Of a stretch of DNA of 64,000 nt, positions 5,369 to 64,000 are shown in pieces. The first letter of the stretch is position 1. Each line of letters opens with the position of its first letter. Under the pieces are notes generated by a model that had not been told where the DNA came from, did not search any database, and saw nothing but the letters and a program-made list of their open reading frames with translations. The stretch lies in IMG/VR virus record IMGVR_UViG_3300003962_000117. The stretch is one strand, 5' to 3'. Source of the stretch: an uncultured virus (IMG/VR IMGVR_UViG_3300003962_000117) (Duplodnaviria; Heunggongvirae; Uroviricota; Caudoviricetes). Made by a program: the position numbers and the translations under genes.

Positions 5369-5370
5369 CG

Positions 5371-41390: not shown

Positions 41391-41642
41391 ATGGAGCTCA
41401 TAGGTGAAAATATAAAGAGTAGTGGTCTTTCAGACTTCAAAGACCCGTTCAATAAAGAATGCGTAAGGGAAATTTTCTTTTTTGTAAGAAAGGAATTTTG
41501 TGGGAATAAGGGTATTCAATATGACTCTACCGTATATTTCAAAAACGGCAATACTAAGGGAGAGCAAAATATAAAAGCTGACGATTTCGTCTCCCTCGTA
41601 AAAAAGACAGAAGATTTTGTGAAATCATTAGAGAATAAATGA
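41391..41642 (+). CDS. hypothetical protein
   Basis: packed ORF. Confidence 0.6.
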   Translation: MELIGENIKSSGLSDFKDPFNKECVREIFFFVRKEFCGNKGIQYDSTVYFKNGNTKGEQNIKADDFVSLVKKTEDFVKSLENK

Positions 41643-42418
41643 AAGAGTTTTATTATCAGATAAAAGGCAAGCGGGCAAAGAAAGACCGAAATAGCGGCCT
41701 TTACAATGGAATTTCCAACTGGACATTTCCTCCTATATTTTCCGGAAAGGTAGAGGCTGAAACAAAAGAAGAGGCGAATGAAAAAATAAATGCTCTATAT
41801 GGAAAAAAATTTCCAAGACGGGTGGCCAAAAAGGATTTGAAATCAAATGAGTTCCTGCTGCATATCGAAGAGATAAAAGAGGGCAGTCATTTATCCAGAT
41901 TATTCCAAGAAAATAAATGCGAGCACTGCCAGAGACCTTACAGGATTATTGACAAGTATAATGACAGTCATTGCGATTATAAAGGATTTGGCTATTGTTC
42001 AAATCATTGCAGACAACAGGCGTATCAGGTTCAACAATACAAGCGCAGGGAGATGGAGAATAACGGCATGGGCGGAACCCGTGCGCCAGTCATCTATAAA
42101 ATAACCAACCGGAATACGAGTCAGGTTTATATCGGAAAGACGAATCAAGTATTTACTCTCCGGTGGTATCAGCACTTTTTTCAAAGCGAGAACACCAAAT
42201 TCCATAAAGCAATCAATTCTACAAAGGTGACGGAGTGGCTCTTCGAGATAATCGAGATAGTAAGCATTCCGGACGAATTGAAAGCCGATATGGACATTCA
42301 AAAGTACATTGTGTCCCGCGAAATGCACTGGATAAATCATTACAACTCCATTAATAACGGATACAATACGCTTTCCTCAATAGACGAAAAGGAGAGCGCT
42401 GAAAAATTAATGCAATGA
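41639..42418 (+). CDS. GIY-YIG endonuclease domain protein
   Basis: IYKITN...VYIGKT...RW.QH...E..WI......NGYN. Confidence 0.85.
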   Translation: MKEFYYQIKGKRAKKDRNSGLYNGISNWTFPPIFSGKVEAETKEEANEKINALYGKKFPRRVAKKDLKSNEFLLHIEEIKEGSHLSRLFQENKCEHCQRPYRIIDKYNDSHCDYKGFGYCSNHCRQQAYQVQQYKRREMENNGMGGTRAPVIYKITNRNTSQVYIGKTNQVFTLRWYQHFFQSENTKFHKAINSTKVTEWLFEIIEIVSIPDELKADMDIQKYIVSREMHWINHYNSINNGYNTLSSIDEKESAEKLMQ

Positions 42419-48589: not shown

Positions 48590-48718
48590 TTATTTGTGAT
48601 TTTCGATGTACTCTATCGCATCCTCAACGGTAACGATTTTTTCCATGTCATCATCCGGTATGGTTATCTTGAATGCTTTTTCAAGCTCAAGAATTAACTC
48701 CACCATGTCCAGAGAAGA
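48590..48718 (-). pseudogene. acpP: C-terminal half of acyl carrier protein
   Basis: [43 protein letters not shown]-terminal helix absent, replaced by tRNA-Cys. Confidence 0.75.
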
Positions 48719-48724
48719 CCCTTG

Positions 48725-48795
48725 AGGTCGTAATCTGATTTGAACAGATGTACGCAGTTTTGCAGACTGCTGGATAACCGCTCTCCCATACGACC
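48725..48795 (-). tRNA. tRNA-Cys(GCA)
   Basis: GGTCGTA/TACGACC stem, GCAGT CTGCAAA ACTGC, TTCAAAT T-loop, U73. Confidence 0.9.
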
Positions 48796-48878
48796 AATTA
48801 AACCCTGTCATCGCAATAGTCATCAAACCGAACTCAGTCGCAAGGGTTTTCAGCCCCATATTGCGAGACAAAGTTTTG

Positions 48879-48952
48879 AGCGAAAGACGGGGGTCGAACC
48901 CGCGAACCTCCACATTGGCAACGTGGCGCTCTACCGACTGAGCTACTTTCGC
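48879..48952 (-). tRNA. tRNA-Gly(GCC)
   Basis: GCGAAAG/CTTTCGC, CCACG TTGCCAA TGTGG. Confidence 0.92.
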
Positions 48953-48962
48953 ATGATAATAA

Positions 48963-49679
48963 TTATTCACGTTTATCTCTTTTTATATGCCTGTTTACCA
49001 TAGCGCATAGTGGTCGAAAATTCGTATAATGATTTAATCTTATTAATTCCTCTTTCGTCTTTGCGCTTTTTAATGGAACTATATGGTCTAAATCCCATCC
49101 ATAATTAAATTTTCCGTTATATTTGCCTTTATTTTTCCAAGTCATCCATTTTTCAAACTTGGACTCAATGTGTGTTTTAAATTCCAGAAATGTGCATCCT
49201 AATATGCTTTGAGTTACCTCCTTCTTAATATACCCATTCTTCTTGATAGACTCTCTTATCAATCTGCTAATAGTGCATTGCAGGGAAAACAATGAATTGT
49301 TCGCTCTTTTGTTTCTCATGTACATCCTTTTTCTTTCCCTGAATTTTATTTTATGTTCAACATAGTAGTCGTGAGCATATTGGGATAGGGCTTTCTTGTT
49401 TTTATCTCTATACACCTTAGTTGATGACAGGAAGCATTCTTTGCATACTTTTTTGTGTTTATAAAATTTAGAAATATCCTTAATCTCCAAGCATTTGCTG
49501 CATTTTTTTTGACTTATATTTCTGCCGAATGGAAGTATGATATTATTCTTTTTTGCAAATTTTTTAACTAACTTAAAGTTTCTCCCATAATATTTTAACC
49601 CTAAATTCTCCAATACGCCTCTCATATTTATGGAAGATTTAACTGCATTTGTTAGCTCTGTTTTCGTAATTTTTTTCAT
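48963..49679 (-). CDS. HNH-family endonuclease inside the tRNA array
   Basis: CSKC/CKEC zinc knuckle; ILGCT...MTWKN...WDLDHIVPL...[10 protein letters not shown]. Confidence 0.8.
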
Positions 49680-49880
49680 GGAAATTAGTATAACCCCGAT
49701 TCTGTTTTATTTTGTCATTTATCTAAGCCACAACCCGACTTCATAGGAAAACCGACATCCTCTGTCTGTTTGTGTTGCTACTTCCATAGTGATAGCGAAT
49801 GTTTTTCATTCTTCTATGTTAGGTTTGGTAGTCGGGAGTTTCCTCTGATAATTAACCAGCGACAAACCCTATTACTTCCA
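49677..49880 (-). ncRNA. rnpB: minimal RNase P RNA
   Basis: GAGGAAACTCCCGA pairs with AACAGAATCGGGGTTA (P4 with bulged U); P2 TTTGTC/GACAAA, P3 CTGGT/ATCAG, GGCTTAGATAAATGA, AGTAGCAACACAAA. Confidence 0.85.
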
Positions 49881-49888
49881 CAAATATA
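49881..49888 (-). promoter_or_regulatory. Bacteroidota -7 promoter for rnpB/HNH
   Basis: TATATTTG on - strand immediately 5' of the RNA. Confidence 0.6.
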
Positions 49889-49941
49889 CTATTTTTCAAG
49901 ATTCTGTTTTATAACACGCATATAATATTTCAAAAAACGAG

Positions 49942-50015
49942 AGCGGATGGCGAGGCTCGAACTCGCGACCTGAACATTGGAAGTGTTCCATTCTACCAAA
50001 CTGAACTACATCCGC
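49942..50015 (-). tRNA. tRNA-Gly(TCC)
   Basis: GCGGATG/CATCCGC, GAACA CTTCCAA TGTTC. Confidence 0.92.
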
Positions 50016-50025
50016 ATTTATTTAG

Positions 50026-50097
50026 TACCCCGTAGGGTAATCGAAACCCTATCTTTTGGTTGAAAACCAAACGTGCTGACCTTTACACCAACGGGGC
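50026..50097 (-). tRNA. tRNA-Glu(TTC)
   Basis: GCCCCGT/ACGGGGT, TTTGG TTTTCAA CCAAA. Confidence 0.88.
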
Positions 50098-50146
50098 GTA
50101 GTCTCCTCCGCCTCGTCAGTTTCTTCAACTATGTTAATCACGTTTG

Positions 50147-50275
50147 TCATTTTGCTTCTTGTTTCAAAATTCTCCTTGTTGATTTATTTGCCAGTCGTTT
50201 TCCATCTTTACGCAAGTGCTTGTGCCAGCCTGTTTCGCTTCTTGATTTTCCGCTTACCGGATATTGCTTTTTCAT
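50147..50275 (-). CDS. 42-aa basic peptide
   Basis: MKKQYPVSGKSRSETGWHKHLRKDGKRLANKSTRRILKQEAK*. Confidence 0.55.
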   Translation of the reverse strand: MKKQYPVSGKSRSETGWHKHLRKDGKRLANKSTRRILKQEAK

Positions 50276-50286
50276 TCTATTCTTAT

Positions 50287-50436
50287 TTATGAATCCGGTG
50301 TTTCAAAACAATGTCCGCATTCAGTGCATTTTTTCCCGTATGGATTATCTGGGTCTATATCGAGAGCGTCTGGTGTATGTCCGCAATTAGGACAATCATA
50401 ACCTTGCTCGTCATAATATATAACTCCATTTTTCAT
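50287..50436 (-). CDS. 49-aa zinc-ribbon protein
   Basis: MKNG...CPNCG...CTECG; ATG just 3' of tRNA-Asp. Confidence 0.6.
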   Translation of the reverse strand: MKNGVIYYDEQGYDCPNCGHTPDALDIDPDNPYGKKCTECGHCFETPDS

Positions 50437-50438
50437 TG

Positions 50439-50514
50439 CGGATGTGAAGGGGCTCGAACCCTCGACCTCTCCCGTGACAGGGGAGCACTCTAACCAAAAC
50501 TGAGCTACACATCC
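50439..50514 (-). tRNA. tRNA-Asp(GTC)
   Basis: GGATGTG/CACATCC, CTCCC CTGTCAC GGGAG, G73. Confidence 0.92.
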
Positions 50515-50526
50515 ATATTTTTTTTC

Positions 50527-50603
50527 TGGCTCTCGCGGCAAGACTTGAACTTGCGACCCTCTGATTAACAGTCAGATGCTCTAACCAACTGAGCTACGCG
50601 AGA
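50527..50603 (-). tRNA. tRNA-Asn(GTT)
   Basis: TCTCGCG/CGCGAGA, TCTGA CTGTTAA TCAGA, encoded CCA. Confidence 0.93.
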
Positions 50604-50617
50604 ATTTATATTTCATG

Positions 50618-50691
50618 TACGCAAGGCTGGATTTGAACCAGCGACCCCAACATTATCAGTGTTGTACTCTAACCAACTGAGCTACTCGCGT
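50618..50691 (-). tRNA. tRNA-Ile(GAT)
   Basis: ACGCGAG/CTTGCGT, CAACA CTGATAA TGTTG. Confidence 0.92.
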
Positions 50692-50844
50692 ATAATATGC
50701 TGCCATCGAGACAAACAAGATTTGTTGCAACAAAATCCTGCCTGACATTCTTTATATAGCGGTGGCGGACGCTACTTAATCTCATGCGGTTTGCAACATA
50801 CGATTTGCGCCTACACGATTTCAGTTTCTCAAAGAACAACTTCG

Positions 50845-50946
50845 TAGCGGGTGTGAGAGTCGAACTCACTATCTCTGAGGGTATGAGCCTCGAATGATTC
50901 ATGCAATTCATTTCTGGCATTGCAATCTCCGTTTCACTCCCCCGCA
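50845..50946 (-). tRNA. tRNA-Met(CAT), initiator-like, with enlarged D-loop
   Basis: GAGG CTCATAC CCTC anticodon arm, GTGAG TTCGACT CTCAC T-arm, 1:72 mismatch, 36-nt D-loop. Confidence 0.65.
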
Positions 50947-50962
50947 ATATATTTTTCTTCCG

Positions 50963-51035
50963 TAGCGATAGGCAGACTCGAACTGCCGACCTTGAGTTTA
51001 TGAATCTCACGCTCTACCACCTGAGCTATATCGCT
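50963..51035 (-). tRNA. tRNA-Met(CAT) (elongator Met or Ile2)
   Basis: AGCGATA/TATCGCT, loop TTCATAA. Confidence 0.88.
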
Positions 51036-51047
51036 GTCATTTTTTAG

Positions 51048-51120
51048 AGCCAGTTGAGGGACTCGAACCCCCGACCAACTGATTACAAATCAGCCGTTCT
51101 ACCAACTGAACTAAACTGGC
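51048..51120 (-). tRNA. tRNA-Thr(TGT)
   Basis: GCCAGTT/AACTGGC, GCTGA TTTGTAA TCAGT. Confidence 0.93.
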
Positions 51121-51121
51121 A

Positions 51122-51193
51122 TGGTAGCGATAAGAGGACTTTCACCCCTTGTTAGGCTCGCGAGAACCTAACCCCCGTGATGAGAATATCGCT
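51122..51193 (-). ncRNA. tRNA-like RNA with ACCA end, no anticodon loop
   Basis: AGCGATA/TATCGCT-ACCA, T-like arm AGGGG TGAAAGT CCTCT, 8-bp hairpin with 4-nt loop. Confidence 0.6.
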
Positions 51194-51279
51194 GGACGAA
51201 TCCGTTTTAGCCGTAACCTATTGTACAATTCAGTTACGATTTATCATCTTCATCTTTCTGCATTATGGTTTAGCAGAAG

Positions 51280-51354
51280 TGGCAACAGTTGGACTCGAAC
51301 CAACAACGGGCAGATTTTCAGTCTGCTGCTCTACCAAATTGGAGCTATGTTGCC
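51280..51354 (-). tRNA. tRNA-Phe(GAA)
   Basis: GGCAACA/TGTTGCC, GCAGA CTGAAAA TCTGC. Confidence 0.93.
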
Positions 51355-51446
51355 ATTCAAGCAGGGCGATTCCGATAGAACGGAAAGATTACAGGGCGCT
51401 GATTCTTTTTTTTGCTCTTTCACCCAGACCTGCTTCGTGGAATTGT

Positions 51447-51592
51447 TGGCGCAGGCGGTAGTTTATCCCCGCGTCCTCCTCCTTCTCAGGCAGAGGTGAA
51501 CAACTTTGGTCTTAATGGGTCACGTTAACCCACTCCGATGGATAATGATTCAGCGCTGAATCATCGCTCCCCATTCTGTTCTACTGCACGCA
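51447..51592 (-). ncRNA. unassigned multibranch structured RNA
   Basis: closing stem GCGTGCAGTAG/CTACCGCCTGCGC, three inner hairpins. Confidence 0.45.
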
Positions 51593-51600
51593 TCTTAAAT

Positions 51601-51676
51601 ATCGCTGTCGGGCAGGGCTCGAACCTGCGACCTCCTCCCTCGCGGGAGTGCTCTACCAACTGAGCTACCGACCGAT
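51601..51676 (-). ncRNA. tRNA-like RNA with GCGA tetraloop replacing the anticodon loop
   Basis: canonical D arm TAGCTCAGTTGGTAGAGC and T arm GCAGG TTCGAGC CCTGC; CTCCC GCGA GGGAG. Confidence 0.75.
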
Positions 51677-51773
51677 GTCTCAGGAGACCCGACCAGCAGA
51701 ATTTCGTTTACGAGACGAAACCCCGCAGTTCGTTAGATTGTACCTAATCCCCATCCACACCTTCTTCAATATC

Positions 51774-51878
51774 TTCGGCAAGAGAACTGTTCCGCACCAT
51801 CGTAGTCCCGTTGGAACTGTACGTTGTTACGATGGGTGTCCATCTGGTGTGATACTCCCTTTCAGGAGTCCTGCCGAA
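51774..51878 (-). ncRNA. unassigned structured RNA
   Basis: TTCGGCAG/TTGCCGAA, ACTCCT GAAA GGGAGT, CACCCATCGTA/TACGATGGTG. Confidence 0.5.
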
Positions 51879-51923
51879 TAATTTCCAATAATAATTTTCA
51901 AAGAACATTTACTATCACTATCG

Positions 51924-51996
51924 CGCAAGTGACAGGGCTCGAACCTATGGCCTACGGTTTTGGAGACCGTTGCTCTACCAACTGAGCTACACTTGC
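51924..51996 (-). tRNA. tRNA-Trp(CCA)
   Basis: GCAAGTG/CACTTGC, ACGGT CTCCAAA ACCGT, G73. Confidence 0.93.
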
Positions 51997-52010
51997 GTTT
52001 GACCGGACTT

Positions 52011-52047
52011 AAAACAAAAAGCCCCGAACATTTCTGTCGGGGCTTTC
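52011..52047 (-). terminator. intrinsic terminator (attenuator) directly upstream of the tRNA array
   Basis: GAAAGCCCCGAC-AGAAATGT-TCGGGGCTTT followed by TTGTTTT. Confidence 0.8.
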
Positions 52048-52066
52048 CGCTTTAGGTCTTGTATCT

Positions 52067-52213
52067 TTATCCTTCATCAGAATACAAAACTTTGTAGAAA
52101 GCCCCGACCGCATCCTCGTCCCCCGCCTTATTAAAGCGAATGACTGACACGGCACAGGTTTTACCCGCTATCGTAGGCCACATTGTTGTTGTATTTTTTT
52201 GAAGTGAAAGCAT
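52067..52213 (-). CDS. 48-aa putative leader peptide overlapping antiterminator
   Basis: MLSLQKNTTTMWPTIAGKTCAVSVIRFNKAGDEDAVGAFYKVLYSDEG*; A-rich Bacteroidota-style leader before ATG. Confidence 0.65.
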   Translation of the reverse strand: MLSLQKNTTTMWPTIAGKTCAVSVIRFNKAGDEDAVGAFYKVLYSDEG

Positions 52214-52259
52214 TTTCTGTTTTTGTTGTTGACTACTTCGTGTTGTTGCTATTATGACG

Positions 52260-52267
52260 CAAAGTTA
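52260..52267 (-). promoter_or_regulatory. Bacteroidota -7 promoter of the tRNA operon
   Basis: TAACTTTG(C) on - strand, about 47 nt before leader ATG. Confidence 0.7.
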
Positions 52268-52409
52268 TACTAAAAGTTGCTTACATCGCGCAACTATTTT
52301 TCAATAACGGTGTAAGTTATTGATTTTCAATAAATAAAAAGGTAATTATATACTATTTTACACCGTATTGATATTTTGCTTATATTTGTAGTATCTAAAC
52401 CTACTAATC

Positions 52410-53364
52410 ATGGCAAAGAAAGCAATCAAACAAATCTGCTCCCTCTACGACTTACTAAAGAAATTTCCCACTGAAAAGGACTGCATCGAATACTTCGAGC
52501 AAATAATCTGGCAGGGGAAACCAATATCTCCATTCGATGAGACCTCGAAGGTCTATAAATGCTCTGGCAACAAATATAAATGCAAAAAGACTGGAAAATA
52601 CTTCAACATTAAGAACGGAACTATTTTCGAGAACAGCAACATTAAACTACAAAAGTGGCTTATGGCTATTTACCTGATGACTTCACACAAGAAAGGTATC
52701 AGTTCTATCCAGCTATCGAAAGACATAGGCGTTACTCAAAAGAGCGCATGGTTTATACTCCACAGACTTCGTTATGCAATGGCTCACAGAGACTTTAAGA
52801 AGCCACTGGGGAACACCGTTGAGTGCGATGAGGCATATATCGGTGGAAAGGAAAAGAACAAGCACGCAAGCAAGAAAAGAGGTCAAGGACAGGGTTCATT
52901 GGACAGAGAGGCATTGGATAAGGCAACCGTATTCGGAGCAGTTGAGCGGGGGTGGAAAGGTTGTAGTGGAGAAAATAGCCAATGCTAACAAGGAAAATAT
53001 AGAGCCGATTATATTCAAGAACGTAAAAGAAGGTTCAAGAATATTTACTGACGAATGGTATGGCTATCATGCGCTCGGAAAAACTTACGAGCATAAATCA
53101 ATTAAGCATAATGTAAAGCAGTATGTAGATGGTGAAGTCCATACGAATACCATCGAAAATTTCTGAGCGTGTTTAAAGCGCGGGCTATACGGCATATACC
53201 ATAAGACCGACAAAGCACATCTACAATGGTATCTGGATGAGTTCGCCTTTCGATATAATACCAGAGATATGGCGGAACTTCCAAGATGCGAAATGTTTTT
53301 AGAGAGAACTCAAGGAAGATTGAAATACGCAGATTTAATAAAATCCAATTCTAAGAAAAAATAA
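52410..53364 (+). pseudogene. IS1595 (ISXO2-like) DDE transposase, frameshift plus in-frame TGA
   Basis: KKGISS.QL, VECDEAYIGG, TDEW..Y, HTNTIENF*, YLDEF.FRYN; extra G at 52948-52952, TGA at 53164. Confidence 0.85.
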
Positions 53365-54062: not shown

Positions 54063-54572
54063 TTATTGAGTGTAACTTATAATCGGTCTTGCTCCGAGCA
54101 TATACTTTGTTTCTCCGGATGGAAAACTCTGACTTCCGTGCTCAAGACTGATGTCAAATAAAATCCCGCGACCCATCTTATTTTCGACTGGAGTTATGTT
54201 TTCTCCGTCATAGAAATTTGTTCCGCCACCTCTGGATAAGTCGTTGAGATAGAAGGCCAGCTTAAAAAATACTCCGGCATCAGCTCTATCCTTATGCTTT
54301 CCAAGTGGAGAATAGGCTCTGGTCATGGTCATGTCGCTTCCGATGCCCATAATCCTGAATGATTTATTCCGGAGCTCGTCTCGAAATGTCATTGCGGAAA
54401 TTTTATCACGGATGAATCCCCATAATTGGTTGCTCAGTAGCGGCATTGTGATTATTACCTGATGCTCGCCAACGGAATCAATTTCCTTTCTTAGATATTC
54501 GCATTGCTCTGGAGTGAGAATATTTCCCATCAAATAGATGCTTGTTCCAAAGCATTTTTTAACCCCCGACAT
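54063..54572 (-). CDS. 2OG-Fe(II) oxygenase (prolyl-hydroxylase-like)
   Basis: KHKD...FYLND...GGGTNF...G.GILFD...EHG...KY. Confidence 0.75.
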   Translation of the reverse strand: MSGVKKCFGTSIYLMGNILTPEQCEYLRKEIDSVGEHQVIITMPLLSNQLWGFIRDKISAMTFRDELRNKSFRIMGIGSDMTMTRAYSPLGKHKDRADAGVFFKLAFYLNDLSRGGGTNFYDGENITPVENKMGRGILFDISLEHGSQSFPSGETKYMLGARPIISYTQ

Positions 54573-54575
54573 TGT

Positions 54576-54992
54576 TTACTGTTTTAAATAAAACTCCAAC
54601 TCTTTATGAATAATGCTGCTTACGTTTTTCTTCCAAGATTCATCATTTACTCTTATAGAATTTCTTATATCCGTAGCGCTAATCATTGACACGGAGCCAT
54701 CAACCTTTATTTCATCTATCGAATATCCAACATTTCTTCCATATTTTATAGAGCAAATATTCGGAACGATAATTACTTCAACCAATTCATTGCCAGCATA
54801 TATCATCTCCCACAGCCTCTTAACTATGTCCGCCTTGAGGGGATTTTGCTCTGATGGCTCCATATTCCTTATTGCTATGCAAATCCTTTTTCCTGCATTT
54901 ATTGATTCATTAAAAATAGTCATGTGTCCGATATGGGGAGGTTGAAATCTCCCAACATACAAAACACACTCCCTGTAATCATTACTTTCCAT
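54576..54992 (-). CDS. HxGH nucleotidyltransferase (cytidylyltransferase-like)
   Basis: GRFQPPHIGH...YGRNVGY...ISATDIR. Confidence 0.85.
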   Translation of the reverse strand: MESNDYRECVLYVGRFQPPHIGHMTIFNESINAGKRICIAIRNMEPSEQNPLKADIVKRLWEMIYAGNELVEVIIVPNICSIKYGRNVGYSIDEIKVDGSVSMISATDIRNSIRVNDESWKKNVSSIIHKELEFYLKQ

Positions 54993-55003
54993 GCTTTGAT
55001 TTA

Positions 55004-55996
55004 TTATTTAAGCGACTTAATTACTTCTACTACTCGGCCAGACGCCATTCCGTCCCCATAGGGACAAAAATGCTTACTCGGAATATAATTTCTTACCACT
55101 TTATCAAATATCTCAGGAAGCTCATCTGGTTCCGCGCATAAAAATGAATGAATACCGAGAACTTCTGGTCGCTCGGTACAATCGCGACATACGATAGCTT
55201 TCTTATTAAAAAAGGCTGCCTCCTCCTGCAATCCGCCACTATCGGTAATCAAGAACTTACACTCGGAGACCGCTTTTATCATCTGGTCGTATGGCATTGG
55301 ATTTAATACACGCATATAACTAAGCAACTTTGCGTGCTTGACTACATTTGGATTTGGATGAATCGGGATAGTAAAAATCAAATCGGAATTATGCTGGGCT
55401 AATAAATTTATTACTCTGAACCATTCGTGCATATTTTCATGATTCTCTCTACGGTGCATTGTCACCATAACAACATCATTATATGACGGGGAGATGCCTC
55501 TCAAATTATCAAGTCCGGTATTTCCGGTCACTACAACCGATTTCCCAAATCCTTCCCTGTATAAATTTGAGGCATTTTCTGGAGTGGGGCATAAATGAAG
55601 GTCAGATAAAGTGTCAATTAAACGCCTATTCATCTCTTCCGGATATGGATTCTTTTGATAAGTCCTGAGCCCAGCCTCAAGATGAATGACTTTTATCTTT
55701 CGGTGAAATGCAGCAAGAGCTACTCCGAGAGCGCTTGAAGTATCTCCTTGAACAATTACATGAGTAGCCCCGTGAAATATCCAATCGTCATTCATGCAGG
55801 ATGATACAATGGCGTCCAGTCTGTTCTTGGCCGACTTTTCAATACTTATGCGCTTATGAAATTCACCTTCGGCAATATCCTCCTGCTGGCCAGTAAATAA
55901 AACCTCATGCTTAATTCCAGATTTTTCGAGCTCAGAAATTAATGGCTTAATTTTTATATACTCAGGTCTTGTTCCGTATGCAATCAGTAAACTCAT
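55004..55996 (-). CDS. wecB: UDP-N-acetylglucosamine 2-epimerase (non-hydrolysing)
   Basis: GTRPEYIK, VQGDT, HLEAGLR, PEEMNR, HRREN, TDSGGLQEEA, TERPE, YGDG. Confidence 0.95.
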   Translation of the reverse strand: MSLLIAYGTRPEYIKIKPLISELEKSGIKHEVLFTGQQEDIAEGEFHKRISIEKSAKNRLDAIVSSCMNDDWIFHGATHVIVQGDTSSALGVALAAFHRKIKVIHLEAGLRTYQKNPYPEEMNRRLIDTLSDLHLCPTPENASNLYREGFGKSVVVTGNTGLDNLRGISPSYNDVVMVTMHRRENHENMHEWFRVINLLAQHNSDLIFTIPIHPNPNVVKHAKLLSYMRVLNPMPYDQMIKAVSECKFLITDSGGLQEEAAFFNKKAIVCRDCTERPEVLGIHSFLCAEPDELPEIFDKVVRNYIPSKHFCPYGDGMASGRVVEVIKSLK

Positions 55997-56019
55997 TTTA
56001 AAGATATTTTTTATAGTTG

Positions 56020-57147
56020 TTATTCGCTCAAAAACAACATCCTGTCAGTTGTTGCATTTACAATATGAATGAAATTATTAAGAGTCTTTTGCTCGACAAC
56101 TTTAAATCCATTTCCAATCATTTCATCAATCATGTCGAGAACCCAATCCATTTGATATATCGGATTGTCTTTTTCATAATTTATAACAAAAACCCAATCA
56201 TCGAACCCCGTTTTAAAATCAGCATGAAGAACATCGTGCTTCTGGGGATGCTCGAATACAATCTTGCATTTCTTTTTCCTAAATTCTGATAACGGAATTA
56301 TTCCCCTAAATATCCCCCAAGCATTTATTCTATCGCTAAACACTCCATGATGAAAACAATAGCTAAATGGGAGTCTATCAATCTCAAACGGAAATGGATA
56401 ATAGGTGTTTTGTGGATACTTGTCTAATGACAAATCCTGCTTAATCTCAGCTCCGTGCCGAGCCCAAGTTTCGCCCCTGTGAATAAAGCATTTCTCTAAC
56501 GATGGCCTAATATTTGAATAATAGCAATCAAAATAATCAACCTCGTCTGGGTCGAGCAGGCTTTCTATCCGTCCGGATTTATACCATTTTTTATAATCTT
56601 TATATCTGCGCAATTCGATAACATCCGCAATCAAGAATGGATGATTGTATTCTTTTGGCCTAAGATGGCTATATACTTGCGGAAGAAGAGAAGGGAAGTA
56701 GGATTCGAGGTCACTATCATGATTTTTTATTTTATGACCCTTAGTTCTGAGAAAATCATGGAGGAGGCATGATGCGTGAAGCAAGTCAATGGATATTTTG
56801 GAATTGCATTTATCTGAAAAATACTTCGGATTATTAACATCGCTGAGGCTTTTATTTAAAAGCCCAAACTCGCCCCTCATTAAGATTCCGGCTACTATAC
56901 TTGTTGACATTCCGTGCATCAAGCCATGCTTCAAGTCGGATGTCCACCCATTAATATCCCTGTATTTAACTCCGGCAAGTAAGTCGTTTATGCTTCCGCG
57001 ATGATGGACGTTCCATAACAGGTTGCTTACCGAGACCGGAGTGTTGTTGTTTTTTGCGCACCTGCTACAAAGCGAATAAATAAGCAGCTCCAGATAATCG
57101 TTGATTACCTTTGATGTCTTTTGAAAAGATTCAAAATTACTTCTCAT
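56020..57147 (-). CDS. HD-domain-like protein
   Basis: HG..H ... LLHDF ... H ... IAD spacing. Confidence 0.5.
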   Translation of the reverse strand: MRSNFESFQKTSKVINDYLELLIYSLCSRCAKNNNTPVSVSNLLWNVHHRGSINDLLAGVKYRDINGWTSDLKHGLMHGMSTSIVAGILMRGEFGLLNKSLSDVNNPKYFSDKCNSKISIDLLHASCLLHDFLRTKGHKIKNHDSDLESYFPSLLPQVYSHLRPKEYNHPFLIADVIELRRYKDYKKWYKSGRIESLLDPDEVDYFDCYYSNIRPSLEKCFIHRGETWARHGAEIKQDLSLDKYPQNTYYPFPFEIDRLPFSYCFHHGVFSDRINAWGIFRGIIPLSEFRKKKCKIVFEHPQKHDVLHADFKTGFDDWVFVINYEKDNPIYQMDWVLDMIDEMIGNGFKVVEQKTLNNFIHIVNATTDRMLFLSE

Positions 57148-57655
57148 AATCCGATAATATCACCCTGTATTCGTTATCTCTATCGCAATCGTCCATAGCC
57201 CAGTATTTAAAATCACAAGACGGATACTTGTCTGGCAGATTCATATTTTCATACTTATCCCAAACATGAAATCGTATTTTCATCTTAGTGTTAGCAGTGT
57301 TTTTTATCACACGTTCTATAATGTTTACAAAAGAGGAAGGATTATGCAGGCCAATATTGATGGCATTTACGCCCATAAGCTCTAATTGATGCGCCTTTTC
57401 TATGTCAAGATAAATTCCATTTGTATAGAGTATAATAAACTTATCCTTTGATAGCTCGCAAACCTGCCTAATCCTATCCATAAACATAAGGGGCTCTCCT
57501 CCTGAAATGCAAACATTACTGTATTTTTTAAAATCAATTTCTTCGAGAAAAGAACCATAAATGTCTTTCCTAAACCTATGATTCTCGTTGCAGCAGTAGG
57601 AGCACGATAGATTGCATTCCCACGCCACTAATATTCGTATAGTATCCACTTTCAT
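57137..57655 (-). CDS. radical SAM protein
   Basis: CNLSCSYC, ISGGEP, YTNG. Confidence 0.9.
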   Translation of the reverse strand: MKVDTIRILVAWECNLSCSYCCNENHRFRKDIYGSFLEEIDFKKYSNVCISGGEPLMFMDRIRQVCELSKDKFIILYTNGIYLDIEKAHQLELMGVNAINIGLHNPSSFVNIIERVIKNTANTKMKIRFHVWDKYENMNLPDKYPSCDFKYWAMDDCDRDNEYRVILSDYEK

Positions 57656-58338
57656 ATTTTGTGCAGTATTTTTTTAACACATTCTCCAATCGGACGTGCC
57701 GTATCAATAATAAGCTCTGGGCGCTCAGGCTTTTCATAGGGGCTATCAATTCCGGTAAACTCTTTTATCTCACCCCTCCTTGCCTTTACATACAATCCCT
57801 TTACATCCCTGCTCTCGCAAACCGATAAAGGCGTACTTATGTAGGTCTCGATAAATCTCGCACACATCTTCCTGCACGAATCTCTGGCCTCTGCAAATGG
57901 AGAAATCATGCTGACAATCACAATATACCCCTGCTTCTCAAAAATAGAGGCCATATAACCCACACTAACATTGTGCTTAATTCTCTCTTCTATACTAAAT
58001 CCGACTGGCGGTGGGACGATTTTTCTTATCTCATCTCCGTCAAGCAATATGCACTTTGCGCCTACTCCTGTCAATTTTTTAAATAACAACTTAGCTATCG
58101 TTGTCTTGCCAGCTCCCGACAATCCGGTCATCCATATAACACATGGCTTGTAGTTAAAGATGGTTTTATGCCAGAATAAATCAAAGGCAGAGTATGAAAA
58201 TATTTTAACAAAAACATCAATTCCTCCTAATGATAATGACAGTTTAAAATCTCCAGTAATTATAAAAGCCAGCACAGCAGTTATTATCGAGGAATAAATT
58301 CTGTATATGGTAGATTTTATTATGAGAATGTATTTCAT
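57652..58338 (-). CDS. cysC: adenylyl-sulfate (APS) kinase with N-terminal DUF2061-like membrane domain
   Basis: WMTGLSGAGKTT, LDGD, RDVKGLY, FTGIDSPYE. Confidence 0.93.
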   Translation of the reverse strand: MKYILIIKSTIYRIYSSIITAVLAFIITGDFKLSLSLGGIDVFVKIFSYSAFDLFWHKTIFNYKPCVIWMTGLSGAGKTTIAKLLFKKLTGVGAKCILLDGDEIRKIVPPPVGFSIEERIKHNVSVGYMASIFEKQGYIVIVSMISPFAEARDSCRKMCARFIETYISTPLSVCESRDVKGLYVKARRGEIKEFTGIDSPYEKPERPELIIDTARPIGECVKKILHKI

Positions 58339-58964
58339 GCCGCCTCCCTTATAAGTTTAAACCACGTTTGATGGCCATTGACGTGAACGTATTCCAGCCT
58401 CTCATAAATAAAACCAAAGGTCTTGGCTGCATCAATAATAAATCCCTCTGTATATGTTACGCATTCCGGATACTCCCATTCACTCCCAGAGTAGTCACTT
58501 TTCCCCTCCATAAATGTTCCAAAAAATAACGAATCTCCGCGCATGACCTCGCCTAAGCTCATAAGGCATTTCTCAATTTGGCGTTTCGAGCAATGCGTAA
58601 ATATTGAATGGGCTAAGACAAAATCAAAATCGCACCCAAACTCACCTAACTCGAAATTACTATCGTGCGAAAAATGTGGCTTCTTTATTCTAACCAAATC
58701 CCATCCAATCTCCTTTTCAATCCCAGTATTCAGCACGGATTCATTTGGCTCAATTCCATAGTAATTGCCCTCCATTAAATACGGTATCAATAATTTTCCA
58801 GCCCTCAAAGAACCGCATCCTATATCAAGAACTCTATGATACTCTCTGAGGCCAAGCTGAAAAAGTAGAATGAATTGATGGGCAGAAAAAAGGTCGTACT
58901 TGCGCCTGTGGCCTTTTCCGACATACTCCCTGTAATCAAAGTCTTTAGAATCTACGTCTATCAT
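58335..58964 (-). CDS. class I SAM methyltransferase
   Basis: VLDIGCGSLRAG, FD..LAHSIFTH. Confidence 0.9.
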   Translation of the reverse strand: MIDVDSKDFDYREYVGKGHRRKYDLFSAHQFILLFQLGLREYHRVLDIGCGSLRAGKLLIPYLMEGNYYGIEPNESVLNTGIEKEIGWDLVRIKKPHFSHDSNFELGEFGCDFDFVLAHSIFTHCSKRQIEKCLMSLGEVMRGDSLFFGTFMEGKSDYSGSEWEYPECVTYTEGFIIDAAKTFGFIYERLEYVHVNGHQTWFKLIREAA

Positions 58965-58966
58965 TT

Positions 58967-59641
58967 TTAATGATGCTTTAATGACTTGTCCAAAAATTCA
59001 TTCACCTTAATCAAATTATCCTCGCTATAATTTAAAAATGGAAGCTCGTGCTGCAATTTAGAAATGACGCTCTGCGTATTGTTGATGAGATGGTCGAACT
59101 TGACAACAACCCTACTCTCTTTAATCATGGCGCTTTCTAAATGATATAAATATTTTCTTATCAATGCCCTGCACACATCTTCCTCAAACCCATTTCTGGC
59201 AATCAAAGATTTCACTATTTTATATTCATCTCTAACGGATTGAACATACTTGACATCATATCCGAGCTTAATCAAAGCACTCTTATACAAAGGCAGTAGC
59301 AAACAAATTCTTGGGTCTTTAATTGCAATGAGAGGATGCCCGCCAAATACAGATTCGAGTACATACTCAATCAATGGCTTTAATTCACTTATGAGAGATT
59401 CGTGATTTACTAATACTCTCAGAACTGCATCGTGCGGGTCATCCCAAGAACTATTTAGCTTCTTGCTGAGAATGTACTCATTCAGGTTGAATATGCTTTT
59501 GTTTTCAAAAAAGCCCTTCGGGTTATCCTCTGCTGGAGGGGATATATCCTCGCCCAAATATGCACCTAAAATATTAATAACCCCAGTAAGCGCACTTGTC
59601 CCGCTCCGGTGCATACCAACTATTAAAATTGCGACCTTCAT
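58967..59641 (-). CDS. sulfotransferase-family protein
   Basis: GMHRSGTS, NPKGFFE, KDPR. Confidence 0.85.
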   Translation of the reverse strand: MKVAILIVGMHRSGTSALTGVINILGAYLGEDISPPAEDNPKGFFENKSIFNLNEYILSKKLNSSWDDPHDAVLRVLVNHESLISELKPLIEYVLESVFGGHPLIAIKDPRICLLLPLYKSALIKLGYDVKYVQSVRDEYKIVKSLIARNGFEEDVCRALIRKYLYHLESAMIKESRVVVKFDHLINNTQSVISKLQHELPFLNYSEDNLIKVNEFLDKSLKHH

Positions 59642-59688
59642 ATATCTGCTTTCAAAAAAATGCGTCTCGAAATATTATTTTAAAAAGG

Positions 59689-60219
59689 CTATATCTTCTC
59701 GATAAAATAACTCGACCAGTCATCGGTTGAGATGAACATCTTAAATCCGTTGTTCAAGCAAAATTCATCAACGGCTTTTTTAACCTCGTGATATGGATAG
59801 TCGTGACCGCACAAATATCCACCCTTTTTAACTTTATGCCACCACATACCCAAGTCCTTTGTAACCGCATCATAGCTATGGTTGGCGTCAATATAAACAA
59901 AGTCAAGGCTGTTATCATCAAACATACTGACAGCCCTGTGCCCAGTAGCCCTTATCATGGTCGCTCTCTCTCCGAAAGAGTATATCCTATCAAATGCGCT
60001 TGACAGGTTTTCCCTCTGAGCGTCTGCGCCCACATTAGCTACATCATTATAAGATTCTCTTGGCAGCTCCCTCCAAATATCAATCAGGACTAACTCTCTT
60101 CCATTCCAATTTTTCAGTATGTGCTCAGAATACTTCGCCTTCTGAACTCCGAGCTCAACCCCGATTCCTACCAGACCTTTTTCATTAAGAAATGCTGGAA
60201 AATCTTCCCTTGTTTTCAT
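59689..60219 (-). CDS. Methyltransf_24-type SAM methyltransferase
   Basis: GVELGV, LDFVYIDANHSY, KKGG...GHDY. Confidence 0.9.
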   Translation of the reverse strand: MKTREDFPAFLNEKGLVGIGVELGVQKAKYSEHILKNWNGRELVLIDIWRELPRESYNDVANVGADAQRENLSSAFDRIYSFGERATMIRATGHRAVSMFDDNSLDFVYIDANHSYDAVTKDLGMWWHKVKKGGYLCGHDYPYHEVKKAVDEFCLNNGFKMFISTDDWSSYFIEKI

Positions 60220-60226
60220 TTTTGTT

Positions 60227-61078
60227 TTATTTAGTTGGTTTATAATTTATTGCTTGTTCTGCTATTTTCAGATACCTGTGAATCATTAAATGATTGTTCA
60301 TTATCCAATTTTGATTATCCTTTATCATCGCCTCATAACCCGCCTTTGGTATAGACAATATTTTTTCTATCTGCGAGAATATATCTTCATAGTTGTGATA
60401 AAAATACGCCCTGTCAGCGAGTGAAGGTATCTTTGCGCACTCCTCGTTATAATCAGTAAGCAGCATTCCGCCAAATCCTATATTCTCAAAGACTCTATAA
60501 TTGCATTCGTTGGTACTGGACTTGTTAAACGCCACATAGGAGTCCTGAACTACATTAGCATACTCTCTCCATGAAGCGGTTTTTATTGTATAAGATATTT
60601 TTCTCGCATCTAAATCAGACTTGAATTTATCAAAAAACAATTTCCTATTGACATATTCATCAATATGGCCGACAAACGAAAGCTGCTTCCCCCTGCCCTC
60701 TTTTATTCTTCTCATCAAATCTAATGTAAAAAAGAATCCGAGAGGAAGATGGGTTGACGGCCTATTCAGTTTCCTCCTCATTCCATCAACAGACATAAAA
60801 ATATAATCATACGAGTTTGCATAATTCGGATAGGCGCTAAAAATTCCGCCATTATCTATGAACCACATTGCTTTAGGCACTTTTACGCTGGCCATGAGAT
60901 GCGAATAGATGGACTTACCTTCATTAAATTCCTGCTCTATAATTAAATCTGCATTTTTTGCTCGCTCGTAAAAAACCTCTTTAGGCATTTTATAATTATA
61001 AAAACTCGCATCAAAATATTCACCGAGCCCCATAAAATCCGAGTCCCATAGCGTGAGAAATAATACCTTTGGCTTCAT
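60227..61078 (-). CDS. CgeB-like glycosyltransferase
   Basis: SFVG, FN......NYRVFE..G.G.MLLTD. Confidence 0.75.
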   Translation of the reverse strand: MKPKVLFLTLWDSDFMGLGEYFDASFYNYKMPKEVFYERAKNADLIIEQEFNEGKSIYSHLMASVKVPKAMWFIDNGGIFSAYPNYANSYDYIFMSVDGMRRKLNRPSTHLPLGFFFTLDLMRRIKEGRGKQLSFVGHIDEYVNRKLFFDKFKSDLDARKISYTIKTASWREYANVVQDSYVAFNKSSTNECNYRVFENIGFGGMLLTDYNEECAKIPSLADRAYFYHNYEDIFSQIEKILSIPKAGYEAMIKDNQNWIMNNHLMIHRYLKIAEQAINYKPTK

Positions 61079-61728
61079 ATTGAATACCCTAATTGCTTTT
61101 CCTGATTTATATCAAGGCGCTTTCTTATCGCAGACATATATCGAGATGGGATTTTGTATTTCGGCTTACGAATATATGTTCCGCCATACGTCTCGTCACT
61201 ACTCGTTATAATTATGTTGCTGCTTTTCCTTTTAATGGAAAAATTCTTTCCAATATCTACAATGATTTCCCTTCCGTTTCTTTTTATATCCTCGTACCTT
61301 ATCAGCACATAATTACTTACCATCTCAGGCATCCTGTCGAGCAAGTATTCATTTTTCAACTTCCTTAACTCAAAAATATCCTTATACTTTTTTTTATCTT
61401 TCCAATTCCTATCCTCTATAATTTCATTTCCAGTCGCCTCATCAATAGAAACCCATTCGTCAAGTAAAAATGAACCCCATCTCTTATTTCGACCAATAGG
61501 AAGATGATGAGGGTGTTTTTTTAAAGAAGCCATCCATTGAACAGGGTTCCTGACAATTCCTATAAATAAAACATCATCAGTTCCAGATAGGTCGCTGTGT
61601 CCAAAAAAATGCTTCCATCCCCATAACTGCAAATGCTCTATGTCAAAATTATCTAACATAATCTTTTGAATAAAGTTAGTGCCGGAACAACGCTCTCCGT
61701 ATATGGTAAAGATTTTTATATCGCCCAT
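61075..61728 (-). CDS. sulfotransferase-like protein
   Basis: GERCSGTNF, GWKH, RNP..W..S, IRYED. Confidence 0.75.
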   Translation of the reverse strand: MGDIKIFTIYGERCSGTNFIQKIMLDNFDIEHLQLWGWKHFFGHSDLSGTDDVLFIGIVRNPVQWMASLKKHPHHLPIGRNKRWGSFLLDEWVSIDEATGNEIIEDRNWKDKKKYKDIFELRKLKNEYLLDRMPEMVSNYVLIRYEDIKRNGREIIVDIGKNFSIKRKSSNIIITSSDETYGGTYIRKPKYKIPSRYMSAIRKRLDINQEKQLGYSI

Positions 61729-61746
61729 TACTATTAAATTCTCAAA

Positions 61747-62490
61747 CTACAAGTTCATTTTTTTCACTCCTAAAAAAAGACCTCTGTATTTATTATATTC
61801 AAATGGCTTGCCTTCGCTAAATACGGTCTGCTGATACACGATGTCAAACCCTACCTCTTTGATTGCCTGAATTAGTTGCGTTTTTTTGAGCCAAAAAGAT
61901 TTGCTATTACTGTACGAAGCCCATTTATTCATCTCGACTTTATCGCGAGTGGTATTGGAGTCGTATTCAAAAAACCACCTACCCAACTTCCCTTCATTCT
62001 CGCATATTGGAGATAAGCTAAACTGGCAATCGCGCATATCATCCTCTGCATAATGAGTGTCTATGATTATAGTGTCGGTTATAGCTCCCATCTGCTTTAA
62101 AAATGAAACCGGATTGTCCAGATGGTACAAAATCCCGCAACAAAGAATCGCACCATACTTTTTTGACGAGCCGATATTTTTTACATCATCTTTCACAAAG
62201 ATGAGATTTGATAGTTGTTTAAACTTGCTTTTTACAAATAGGCATTTCTGATAATTGGACTCGCGAGCCTCTACCCCAATTACGTCATATCCCATCTGCG
62301 CAAGCGCCACCGAATATCCGCCCTCAAGACATCCTAAATCCAAAATAGACGACTTAGCTCTAACGAATCTGCCTATACTGTCATAAACGGCTCGACTAAG
62401 AACGGAGTCTTTGTGCTCCTCTTTGCCAGCATCCATCGTAAATGTTCCGTCTGGAAATTTTATATTATGGGCTGTAAATTGCTCTGTCAT
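61747..62490 (-). CDS. class I SAM methyltransferase
   Basis: ILDLGCLEGGYS, GVEAR, CCGILYHLDNP. Confidence 0.9.
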   Translation of the reverse strand: MTEQFTAHNIKFPDGTFTMDAGKEEHKDSVLSRAVYDSIGRFVRAKSSILDLGCLEGGYSVALAQMGYDVIGVEARESNYQKCLFVKSKFKQLSNLIFVKDDVKNIGSSKKYGAILCCGILYHLDNPVSFLKQMGAITDTIIIDTHYAEDDMRDCQFSLSPICENEGKLGRWFFEYDSNTTRDKVEMNKWASYSNSKSFWLKKTQLIQAIKEVGFDIVYQQTVFSEGKPFEYNKYRGLFLGVKKMNL

Positions 62491-63998: not shown

Positions 63999-64000
63999 TC

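Follow-up and report, generated by a model that had tools for sequence, protein, structure and literature searches.

RNase P RNA counts among the universal ribozymes of cells. Natural RNase P RNAs that lack the specificity domain are described from Thermoproteaceae (PMC3579882; Lai et al. 2010 as cited in PMC12974513), and the catalytic domain of the E. coli enzyme is reported to be active on its own, about 100-fold slower than the full RNA, with stimulation by the C5 protein and with helix P18 being dispensable (PMC5839562). In phages, theta ribozymes, which resemble that of hepatitis delta virus (HDV), are reported beside the tRNAs of gut phages, most of them predicted to infect Bacteroidota (PMC10879173), and the homing endonuclease SegB is described as helping phages to amplify tRNA genes against a tRNA-cleaving defence (PMC13096335). 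A full-text search of the literature, with subscription journals largely outside it, found neither a phage-encoded RNase P RNA nor a leader-peptide attenuator before phage tRNA genes. Here we describe an RNase P RNA and a putative attenuator of this kind for a stretch of 64,000 nucleotides (nt) from an uncultured virus of the Caudoviricetes (IMG/VR record IMGVR_UViG_3300003962_000117), referred to as a whole as the window. A tRNA unit on its minus strand (48.4-52.3 kb) begins with a leader that is laid out as an attenuator and contains, among its tRNA genes, an RNA that we identify from its sequence as a genuine RNase P RNA reduced to the catalytic domain. Leader switch, tRNA genes and an RNase P RNA of the phage's own form a three-part architecture that recurs in other phage-like contigs. 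With a probability of roughly 60%, we read the unit as an attenuator-gated tRNA operon of a large phage whose catalytic-domain RNase P RNA would use the host protein RnpA to trim phage pre-tRNAs.

The ribozyme has the following position:

49678-49879 (-): miniature RNase P RNA of 202 nt, catalytic domain only (Rfam in E-value mode; 179 bits with our own covariance model R1; family covariation)

At gathering thresholds Rfam reports only tRNAs, and the RNase P match comes from its E-value mode, in which 49680-49879 (-) matches the full RNaseP_arch model with 47.2 bits (E 2.7e-11) as the best of the clan. The conserved regions (CR) CR-I (GAGGAAAnUCC), CR-IV and CR-V (ACAGAA..GGnUUA) are aligned by cmscan in the correct order and their columns are invariant in 9 and in 11 sequences of the family introduced below. 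The specificity domain (P7-P14) is missing: 89 model positions are replaced by 9 nt in the window, the family as a whole retains only a 5-bp helix and one hairpin in its place, and P18 is absent.

Relatives were collected with a search pattern that links CR-I to CR-V at short spacing and that returned four viral contigs (IMG/VR) and 62 metagenome loci, numbered here with the prefix L. The metagenome loci included full-length bacterial RNase P RNAs (such as L019, 193 bits) and archaeal type T RNAs (such as L028), which serve as controls, as well as chance matches in coding sequence. The family proper consists of 12 distinct sequences from 13 loci including the window (L009 is identical to L001), all on phage-like contigs. 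Model R1 was built from nine of these sequences and the three members outside the seed score 141, 130 and 122 bits with it; with RF00010, family members reach 42.9-77.9 bits versus a gathering threshold of about 100. The P4 pseudoknot between CR-I and CR-V forms 7/7 pairs in 9/9 sequences of a plain MAFFT alignment; over 12 sequences, 100% of its cells are paired, three of its pairs covary and the bulged U is kept. On the 3' side of the P15/P16 loop GGT is invariant (12/12), and GGU is the motif that binds the CCA end of tRNA in bacterial type A enzymes. In the family alignment including P4, 88.8% of 589 cells hold standard pairs versus 63.6% in shuffles, and none of 500 shuffles reaches the observed value. 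Changes on both sides were found in 40 of the 50 pairs, with covariation in P1, P2, P3, P5 and P15-P17, and pairing falls to 35-41% when the partners are slid by 1-3 columns. The covarying family, the intact P4 and the conserved regions therefore argue that the RNA is a genuine, catalytic-domain RNase P RNA. The initial annotation, made from the sequence alone, had listed an RNase P RNA in the unit, and this assignment was borne out at 49678-49879 (-) by strong membership in the covarying family, even if the Rfam score lies below gathering.

Compared with bacterial type A RNase P RNA (RF00010, E. coli M1 RNA), the phage RNA shares CR-I, CR-IV and CR-V, the helices P1-P5 and P15-P17, a P4 with bulged U and the GGU in the P15/16 loop. 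It differs in length (about 200 versus about 370 nt), in the absence of P18, in the reduction of P7-P14 to a short helix and a hairpin and in being encoded within the tRNA arrays of phage-like contigs. Type T RNase P RNA of Thermoproteaceae (RF02357) is likewise natural, about 200 nt long and devoid of a specificity domain. However, it is the product of an essential cellular archaeal gene and works with archaeal proteins, whereas the relatives within the phage family resemble bacterial type A. A type T identity of the window RNA was considered and rejected, as RF02357 is not its best clan match (the control L028 scores 119 bits with this model) and the contexts are phage-like tRNA arrays. The engineered catalytic domain of E. 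coli RNase P also lacks the specificity domain but is a laboratory construct, whereas the phage RNA is a natural and conserved one with a predicted activity.

A virus-encoded derivative of RNase P RNA has been presented before, the RNase P-like RNA of camelpox (PMC3001073), which belongs to a eukaryotic virus, is described there without a tRNA array and is discussed as a possible decoy. By analogy, the mini RNase P RNA could be a competitor for RnpA or for pre-tRNA instead of an enzyme for phage tRNAs. It retains the helices that bind RnpA in the bacterial enzyme, and the examined open reading frames (ORFs) included no phage RnpA; both would suit a competitor. However, the catalytic core (bulged U of P4, ACAGAA, GGU) is conserved in full over 12 sequences, which would be needless for a protein sponge, and the ribozyme is situated among tRNA genes, often with a tRNA, its natural substrate, within 2-8 nt. 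We regard a competitor role as very doubtful and prefer a catalytic one.

The association with tRNA genes is a property of most of the family: 8 of the 12 members have 6-22 tRNA genes within 4 kb (window 12, L002 14, L016 7, L022 6, L035 6, L048 9, L057 22, L071 8), while L001 and L011 have one each and the short contigs of L038 and L045 none. Three IMG/VR records that were searched whole contain 27, 14 and 43 tRNA genes, and these are fragments estimated by CheckV as 7-39% complete. In four of the 12 loci (L016, L035, L048, L057) a tRNA gene begins 2-8 nt past the ribozyme, and 5' processing of this tRNA would therefore also form the 3' end of the ribozyme. From the positions we infer that ribozyme and tRNAs are co-transcribed. 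Most likely, the 202-nt ribozyme together with host RnpA would remove the 5' leaders from the pre-tRNAs of the phage, which could then mature without the host ribozyme. A family-specific pattern had no match in 185,579 prokaryote species (one genome each).

Further genes and RNAs were noticed around the family. L002 encodes a CCA-adding-type nucleotidyltransferase (4669-5988, -; PolyA_pol head domain, 1e-30) at a distance of 0.5 kb to the ribozyme, and the tRNA array of L057 includes a gene for a PTH2 peptidyl-tRNA hydrolase (4101-4517, -; 2e-32). P3 is enlarged by about 115-125 nt in L022 (~3880-4165) and L038 (~2283-2582), giving ribozymes of about 300 nt that still lack the specificity domain. 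With R1, scores of 20-57 bits were also obtained for 12 more RNase P-like RNAs of reduced size (about 180-235 nt; L010, L012-L015, L021, L023, L037, L040, L050, L054, L067). Among these, L010 is a 207-nt RNA on a 190-kb viral contig with 13 tRNA genes upstream; it scores 118.5 bits with RF00010 (gathering 100) and is more distant than the family. The others have 0-1 tRNA genes nearby.

The second part of the architecture is the leader, with the following elements; the motif found ahead of the ribozyme is included:

52260-52267 (-): promoter-like -7 motif of the TAnnTTTG type ahead of the leader (consensus match only)
52067-52213 (-): leader ORF of 48 codons (ORF list; indels in relatives)
52008-52179 (-): four-region attenuator (three mutually exclusive helices by folding)
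~52160-52179 with 52096-52112 (-): anti-antiterminator helix, -32.3 kcal/mol, within the leader ORF
52096-52108 with 52037-52049 (-): antiterminator helix, -32.8 kcal/mol, using the 5' arm of the terminator
52037-52053 with 52011-52027 (-): terminator hairpin and U run, -28.0 kcal/mol, ending 15 nt before tRNA-Trp
49881-49888 (-): another promoter-like -7 motif, 2 nt ahead of the ribozyme (consensus match only)

The first two helix arms lie within the leader ORF, whose end is 13 nt ahead of the terminator arm, and the fold of the leader is the strongest of the tRNA unit (z = -5.0). Close relatives of the unit are present on contigs from four metagenome runs. In these, insertions at 52036 and 52026 jointly add one A-U pair to the terminator stem, and the indels listed for the leader ORF fall into nearby sets that sum to 3 (52173 with 52175; 52107 with 52114), 47 further indels lying beyond this partial list. 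The -7 motif shows no enrichment over the window (65 occurrences versus 59 expected), and a scan with sigma-70 and terminator consensus sequences missed the leader terminator and gave sites no more numerous than in shuffles. An attenuator had been proposed for the start of the unit in the initial annotation; leader ORF, terminator, antiterminator and anti-antiterminator were all found.

We propose that transcription would start at a promoter near 52260 and enter this leader-peptide-type attenuator. Smooth translation of the 48-codon ORF would let the terminator form just ahead of tRNA-Trp. If a ribosome stalled early in the leader ORF, the antiterminator would form, RNA polymerase would continue into the tRNA genes and tRNA output would go up.

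A small ORF that ends shortly before a strong terminator is also present upstream of the tRNA genes in L002, L022, L035, L048 and L071. The pre-terminator folds of L035 and L048 contain an antiterminator, and L071 has, by eye, a complementary arm; none was evident in the corresponding folds of L002 and L022. For each leader we determined the share of residues whose amino acid has a downstream tRNA gene (in-set share) and compared it with random sets of equal size:

L002: in-set share 0.54, P 0.015
L022: in-set share 0.68, P 0.0065
L035: in-set share 0.52, P 0.036
L048: in-set share 0.63, P 0.005
L071: in-set share 0.44, P 0.10
Window: in-set share 0.49 versus 0.50 for random sets, P 0.61

Leader residues follow the downstream tRNA set beyond random expectation in four of the five other loci (L002, L022, L035 and L048, not L071). 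The leader of L002 contains 15 consecutive in-set Leu/Ser/Phe/Tyr residues ahead of a Phe/Tyr/Leu/Ser array, and that of L022 contains 12 consecutive in-set Ser/Thr/Ile residues ahead of an Ile/Thr/Leu/Ser array. The L035 leader is rich in Thr and Ile and has a weak match to the Rfam family Thr_leader (34.8 bits, E 0.0098); the thrL leader with its Thr/Ile run resembles it. The terminator of the window gives a weaker Thr_leader match (22.8 bits, E 0.52), and the window leader has a local run of Asn, three Thr, Met and Trp, which was picked post hoc and is suggestive at most. These leaders share with the attenuators of amino-acid operons (thr, ilv, trp; Thr_leader RF00506) the order of a small ORF followed by anti-antiterminator, antiterminator and terminator. 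They differ in preceding tRNA genes and a ribozyme instead of biosynthetic enzymes, and in sampling several amino acids that match the downstream tRNAs, although this match is not significant in the window.

The order of leader ORF and terminator followed by tRNA genes and ribozyme on one strand was found in all six family loci with enough upstream flank, and there is little or no spacer sequence in common between these six. The solid core of our findings is this layout, which recurs in phages and in which tRNA genes and a minimal RNase P ribozyme follow a leader that would sense translation.

The tRNA genes and tRNA-shaped RNAs of the unit are the following:

51923-51996 (-): tRNA-Trp (CCA) (ARAGORN and Rfam, 71.8 bits)
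51279-51354 (-): tRNA-Phe (GAA) (ARAGORN and Rfam)
51047-51120 (-): tRNA-Thr (UGU) (ARAGORN and Rfam)
50962-51035 (-): tRNA with CAU anticodon, Met or Ile2, which are indistinguishable here (ARAGORN and Rfam)
50438-50691 (-): tRNA-Ile (GAU), tRNA-Asn (GUU) and tRNA-Asp (GUC) (ARAGORN and Rfam)
49941-50097 (-): tRNA-Glu (UUC) and tRNA-Gly (UCC) (ARAGORN and Rfam)
48724-48952 (-): tRNA-Gly (GCC), a hairpin spacer of 82 nt (fold z = -4.5) and tRNA-Cys (GCA) (ARAGORN and Rfam)
51604-51674 (-): tetraloop tRNA shape, called 'Leu-gag' by ARAGORN (Rfam tRNA, 39.3 bits; fold)
51122-51193 (-): ACCA tRNA shape without an anticodon loop (fold of spacer S3, z = -3.2)
~50845-50946 (-): RNA derived from tRNA(CAU) with a D-loop hairpin of about 29 nt (fold, T-arm scan, alignment)

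ARAGORN reports 12 tRNA genes on the minus strand between 48724 and 51996, and all 12 exceed the gathering threshold of Rfam tRNA. Eleven tRNAs are canonical, with 57.5-73.3 bits (Trp, Phe, Thr-UGU, CAU, Ile-GAU, Asn, Asp, Glu, Gly-UCC, Gly-GCC and Cys). The count of 12 with two Met tRNAs that had been given before holds for these 11, and the supposed second Met is the CAU element at ~50845-50946 with its D-loop hairpin. tRNA-shaped RNAs lacking an anticodon, of which at least two had been predicted, are seen in the folds at 51604-51674 and 51122-51193. In the former, D and T arms are normal and a 5-bp anticodon stem is capped by a GCGA tetraloop. In the latter, the 7-bp acceptor stem is perfect and the ACCA end is encoded, while a 9-bp stem with tetraloop stands where the anticodon arm would be; the D loop and the non-canonical T loop lack the usual elbow nucleotides. 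The 50845-50946 element contains a CAU anticodon loop, and the 23 nt of its T arm and acceptor 3' strand are identical to the tRNA(CAU) of viral contigs L072-L074; with a word from this element only ordinary tRNA(CAU) genes, without a ribozyme nearby, were retrieved from viral contigs. All three odd elements (51604-51674, 51122-51193 and 50845-50946) deviate from the canonical cloverleaf with its 7-nt anticodon loop and standard D arm, and two of them are missed by ARAGORN even with lowered thresholds. They cannot decode normally, and within our reading they would be non-decoding by-products or accessories. A T-arm scan revealed similar non-standard tRNA-like elements in 7 of 10 other loci scanned, among them L002, L010, L016, L022, L035 and L057, with L002 and L010 also giving chance-looking matches; such elements are therefore not peculiar to this phage. 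The ribozyme has lost the specificity domain, which reads the tRNA elbow, and an elbow-blind enzyme of this kind might take the odd tRNA shapes of the array as substrates too.

Two side observations concern the tRNA content of other family loci. L035 contains three tRNA matches of about 100 nt (4816-4915, 4926-5025 and 5051-5151; 47-53 bits), all missed by ARAGORN and all carrying some 25 inserted nt close to the anticodon region. In L071, a suppressor tRNA with CUA anticodon (7496-7568) shares the array with the mini RNase P RNA, which suggests a stop-codon-recoded phage.

The T4 tRNA cluster also encodes the stable RNA species 1 and 2. T-even clusters with SegB resemble the unit of the window in being tRNA arrays interrupted by a free-standing homing endonuclease and extra small RNAs. 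However, SegB is a GIY-YIG enzyme like that of L071, whereas the enzyme in the window is HNH/EndoVII-like, and the account of the T-even cluster in PMC13096335 describes no RNase P RNA or attenuator there. According to the same source, phage tRNAs and a homing endonuclease in the tRNA array aid the escape of T-even phages from cleavage of tRNA-Tyr by Septu. The unit in the window could likewise be a dedicated counter-defence module, in which tRNAs replace host tRNAs that anticodon nucleases have destroyed, the anticodon-less shapes act as decoys or sponges and the attenuator is triggered by stalled ribosomes. A stall-responsive attenuator would indeed respond to a loss of tRNA, the anticodon loop is replaced by clean tetraloops in two tRNA shapes, which does not look like random decay, and relatives retain two of the three odd RNAs with 90-99% identity. 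Lys and Tyr tRNAs are the best-known, classical targets of tRNA nucleases, but the array contains neither of them according to ARAGORN. Moreover, an RNA that has no anticodon loop cannot imitate the site at which such nucleases usually cut, the tetraloop shape at 51604-51674 lacks an alignment in the long relative contig, 51122-51193 is replaced in another relative, and the family scans revealed no defence or anti-defence family beside the unit, the PADLOC library lying outside these scans. Given this balance, we judge a dedicated counter-defence module unlikely.

Some of its elements are combined differently in a second proposal, a demand-sensing and self-processing tRNA factory. In this case, the multi-codon leader would sense a shortage of the very tRNAs that the unit carries, caused by codon mismatch, host shut-off or a tRNA-cleaving defence, and the co-transcribed, elbow-blind ribozyme would also mature the anticodon-less and elbow-less tRNA shapes, which would act as sponges or decoys for host tRNA-binding enzymes. 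We offer this proposal as speculation with a low probability and retain the attenuator-gated operon with its own RNase P RNA as the preferred reading.

Phage-encoded ribozymes tied to the maturation of phage tRNAs are also represented by the theta ribozymes. As presented in PMC10879173, these are small ribozymes that cleave themselves and process 3' trailers in cis, whereas the ribozyme of the window is of the RNase P type and would act in trans on 5' leaders. No HDV-like ribozyme was matched by Rfam in the window.

Directly adjacent to the ribozyme lies an endonuclease gene:

48963-49679 (-): HNH/EndoVII-like endonuclease of 238 amino acids (PHROG 1035 'endonuclease VII', 1.3e-14)

Its start codon follows immediately after the last base of the ribozyme. 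The protein has no Pfam match, no meaningful NCBIfam match and no related solved structure, and a DH..N..N motif is visible by eye. The earlier designation as HNH nuclease agrees with this motif and with the PHROG match, and Pfam does not back it. Three relatives of the endonuclease in viral contigs (L003-L005) share only the C-terminal half and lie in loci without a tRNA gene or ribozyme match; on these grounds HNH was rejected as the partner of the ribozyme. Within the family, an endonuclease gene lies directly 3' of the ribozyme in 2 of 12 loci. The second case is L071, where a GIY-YIG/NUMOD3 gene in the same position is an insertion between ribozyme and tRNA-Trp relative to the syntenic L048. 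Endonuclease genes are sporadic in the family, probably as mobile insertions, and the gene in the window is best read in this way; it may bring a side benefit to the phage.

The contigs of close relatives from the four metagenome runs cover pieces of 50438-52223 with 90-99% identity and are mosaic. The element at 50845-50946 is conserved at 90-99% in relatives of the four runs. In one relative (X2), 51034-51203, which holds tRNA-Thr and the ACCA tRNA shape, is swapped for 169 other letters, while X1 and X4 cover the ACCA shape; the long X1 contig (record 2) lacks an alignment for 51479-51762, where the tetraloop tRNA shape lies. Segments have been swapped between close relatives, and the set of parts is therefore not a fixed module at strain level.

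This raises the question whether there is a functional unit at all. The locus could instead be a mosaic of independently mobile pieces at a recombination hot spot, namely tRNA genes, a ribozyme carried along by homing endonucleases, degenerate tRNA pseudogenes and small ORFs, with an ordinary terminator in place of the attenuator. The segment swaps (51034-51203, 51479-51762 and 50141-50285, and a joint over 48954-50099), the sporadic endonucleases with the insertion in L071, an acyl-carrier-protein remnant overlapped by tRNA-Cys and an IS1595-type transposase directly upstream of the unit would all be in line with such a mosaic. Still, the order of leader and terminator, tRNAs and ribozyme on one strand is the same in 6/6 loci that share little or no spacer sequence, the leader peptides follow the downstream tRNA sets in 4/5 other loci, and the ribozyme is under strong structural selection. 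A mosaic without any common function appears improbable to us, and we continue to favor the gated tRNA operon. The view of the whole operon as one integrated module, which the initial annotation had put forward, stands for leader, tRNAs and ribozyme, which recur together in all six loci, and not for the full set of parts, which is not conserved. As an observation, the initial annotation is largely right; its reading as an integrated anti-nuclease module is only partly supported, and an anti-nuclease or decoy function would go beyond the confirmed part.

Several points weigh against the gated, self-processing operon that we favor. The window ribozyme remains below Rfam gathering (47.2 versus 84 bits). 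The family alignment was fitted to a covariance model, which favors pairing; however, the plain MAFFT alignment is independently near-complete for the pairing of P5, the P7-like helix, P16 and P17, and an artefact of model fitting is unlikely because of these MAFFT-based pair counts and the slid controls. No RnpA gene was found in 97 ORFs of the window, in 17 ORFs flanking the operon or in 59 ORFs of at least 100 amino acids beside family members, and activity would therefore depend on a host partner. CCA is encoded by only one of 11 tRNAs (Asn) and by one tRNA-like RNA, despite the CCA-binding motif retained in the ribozyme. The codons of the window leader match the array no better than random sets do (P 0.61). 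With the -7 motif 2 nt before it, the ribozyme may be a separate transcription unit. Finally, one X2 contig of a close relative joins 48953 to 50100 and thereby skips tRNA-Glu, tRNA-Gly(UCC), the ribozyme and the HNH gene, and the ribozyme may not be fixed in this phage lineage; the flank match at this joint is only 41 nt. Other pieces from the four runs do not fall on 49005-49850, which is uninformative by itself.

The unit also contains small ORFs and spacers:

50287-50433 (-): zinc-ribbon ORF of 48 amino acids (weak Pfam zinc-ribbon matches)
50147-50275 (-): basic ORF of 42 amino acids, dispensable (an X2 contig omits 50141-50285 and has 28 other letters instead)
51675-51922 (-): spacer with a 54-codon ORF at 51744-51908 (fold z = -1.4; 51763-51922 conserved in relatives)
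51355-51603 (-): spacer (fold z = -2.4; 51377-51478 conserved in relatives)

Eight of 10 listed differences between relatives in the zinc-ribbon ORF are at codon position 3 (binomial P ~0.003; 108 further differences lie beyond this list), and 50287-50433 is probably a real gene. The small peptides noted earlier can be upheld for this ORF, for which coding is supported, and less so for the 42-amino-acid basic ORF, which is missing in one relative. The ORFs of 54, 42 and 66 amino acids gave no family match in PHROG, Pfam or NCBIfam. The several unassigned structured RNAs that had also been claimed did not hold up: fold z values of -1.4, -2.4 and -0.8 are unconvincing, Rfam gave no match beyond chance level at E up to 10, and blastn of the spacers against loci L001-L005 and L008-L069 found no homologue, two elements having short matches in tRNA regions only. 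An exact 23-mer from spacer S1 had no match in viral contigs and none in genome contigs.

By its gene content, the 64-kb window is apparently part of a large phage genome. The plus strand up to 48.4 kb encodes a DnaB-like helicase, RecT, SSB and an exonuclease, two more homing endonucleases, namely an HNH gene (Pfam, 3.6e-12; 29529-30203, +) and a GIY-YIG gene (2.2e-9; 41639-42418, +), and many small ORFs without a family. Sugar and sulphate modification genes occupy the minus strand from 54 to 64 kb, and the tRNA unit lies between these two blocks. Such modification genes are found on three ribozyme-bearing phage contigs (window 54063-64000, -; L011 4216-7635; L002 6026-6598) and comprise UDP-GlcNAc 2-epimerase, APS kinase, glycosyltransferases, UDP-galactopyranose mutase, pyruvyl transferase and sulfotransferase. 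The ORF at 25827-26387 (+), at a large distance from the tRNA unit, contains a cREC_REC cyclic-phosphate-processing receiver domain (3e-17), a domain associated with RNA-repair contexts. An IS1595-family transposase lies directly upstream of and divergent from the tRNA unit in two overlapping frames (52410-52988 and 52774-53166, +); 52410-53166 is likely a frameshifted insertion sequence within the phage genome. At the other end of the unit we found:

48590-48859 (-): acyl-carrier-protein remnant (Pfam PP-binding positions 30-67 of 67; NCBIfam acyl_carrier 52.5 bits versus a cut-off of 70.45)

The match begins at the Ser-Leu-Asp attachment motif and covers the C-terminal half, and the N-terminal 48 codons overlap tRNA-Cys and show no similarity. 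The ORF looks like a gene remnant overwritten by the tRNA gene. With the unit as a blastn query, 50,697 phage records yielded tRNA-level or short matches only, and no record reached a cover of 80% or more, and the best matches of the DnaB protein of the window in known phage records are fragments with 48-51% identity. A protein search of viral contigs found no close relatives of the 207-amino-acid ORF that adjoins the unit. A host among the Bacteroidota would be a guess from the promoter-like motif only, which is not enriched in the window.

If our reading is correct, a conserved viral family of catalytic halves would represent a natural minimal RNase P that is small enough for structural and engineering work. 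Large phages would then take over the 5' maturation of tRNAs besides their supply, and leader-peptide attenuation would extend from the sensing of amino acids to the production of tRNAs. Moreover, this would provide a testable link between ribosome stalling during infection and the expression of phage tRNAs, which bears on the question why phages carry tRNA arrays, be it for codon compensation, in response to host shut-off or as an escape from defence.

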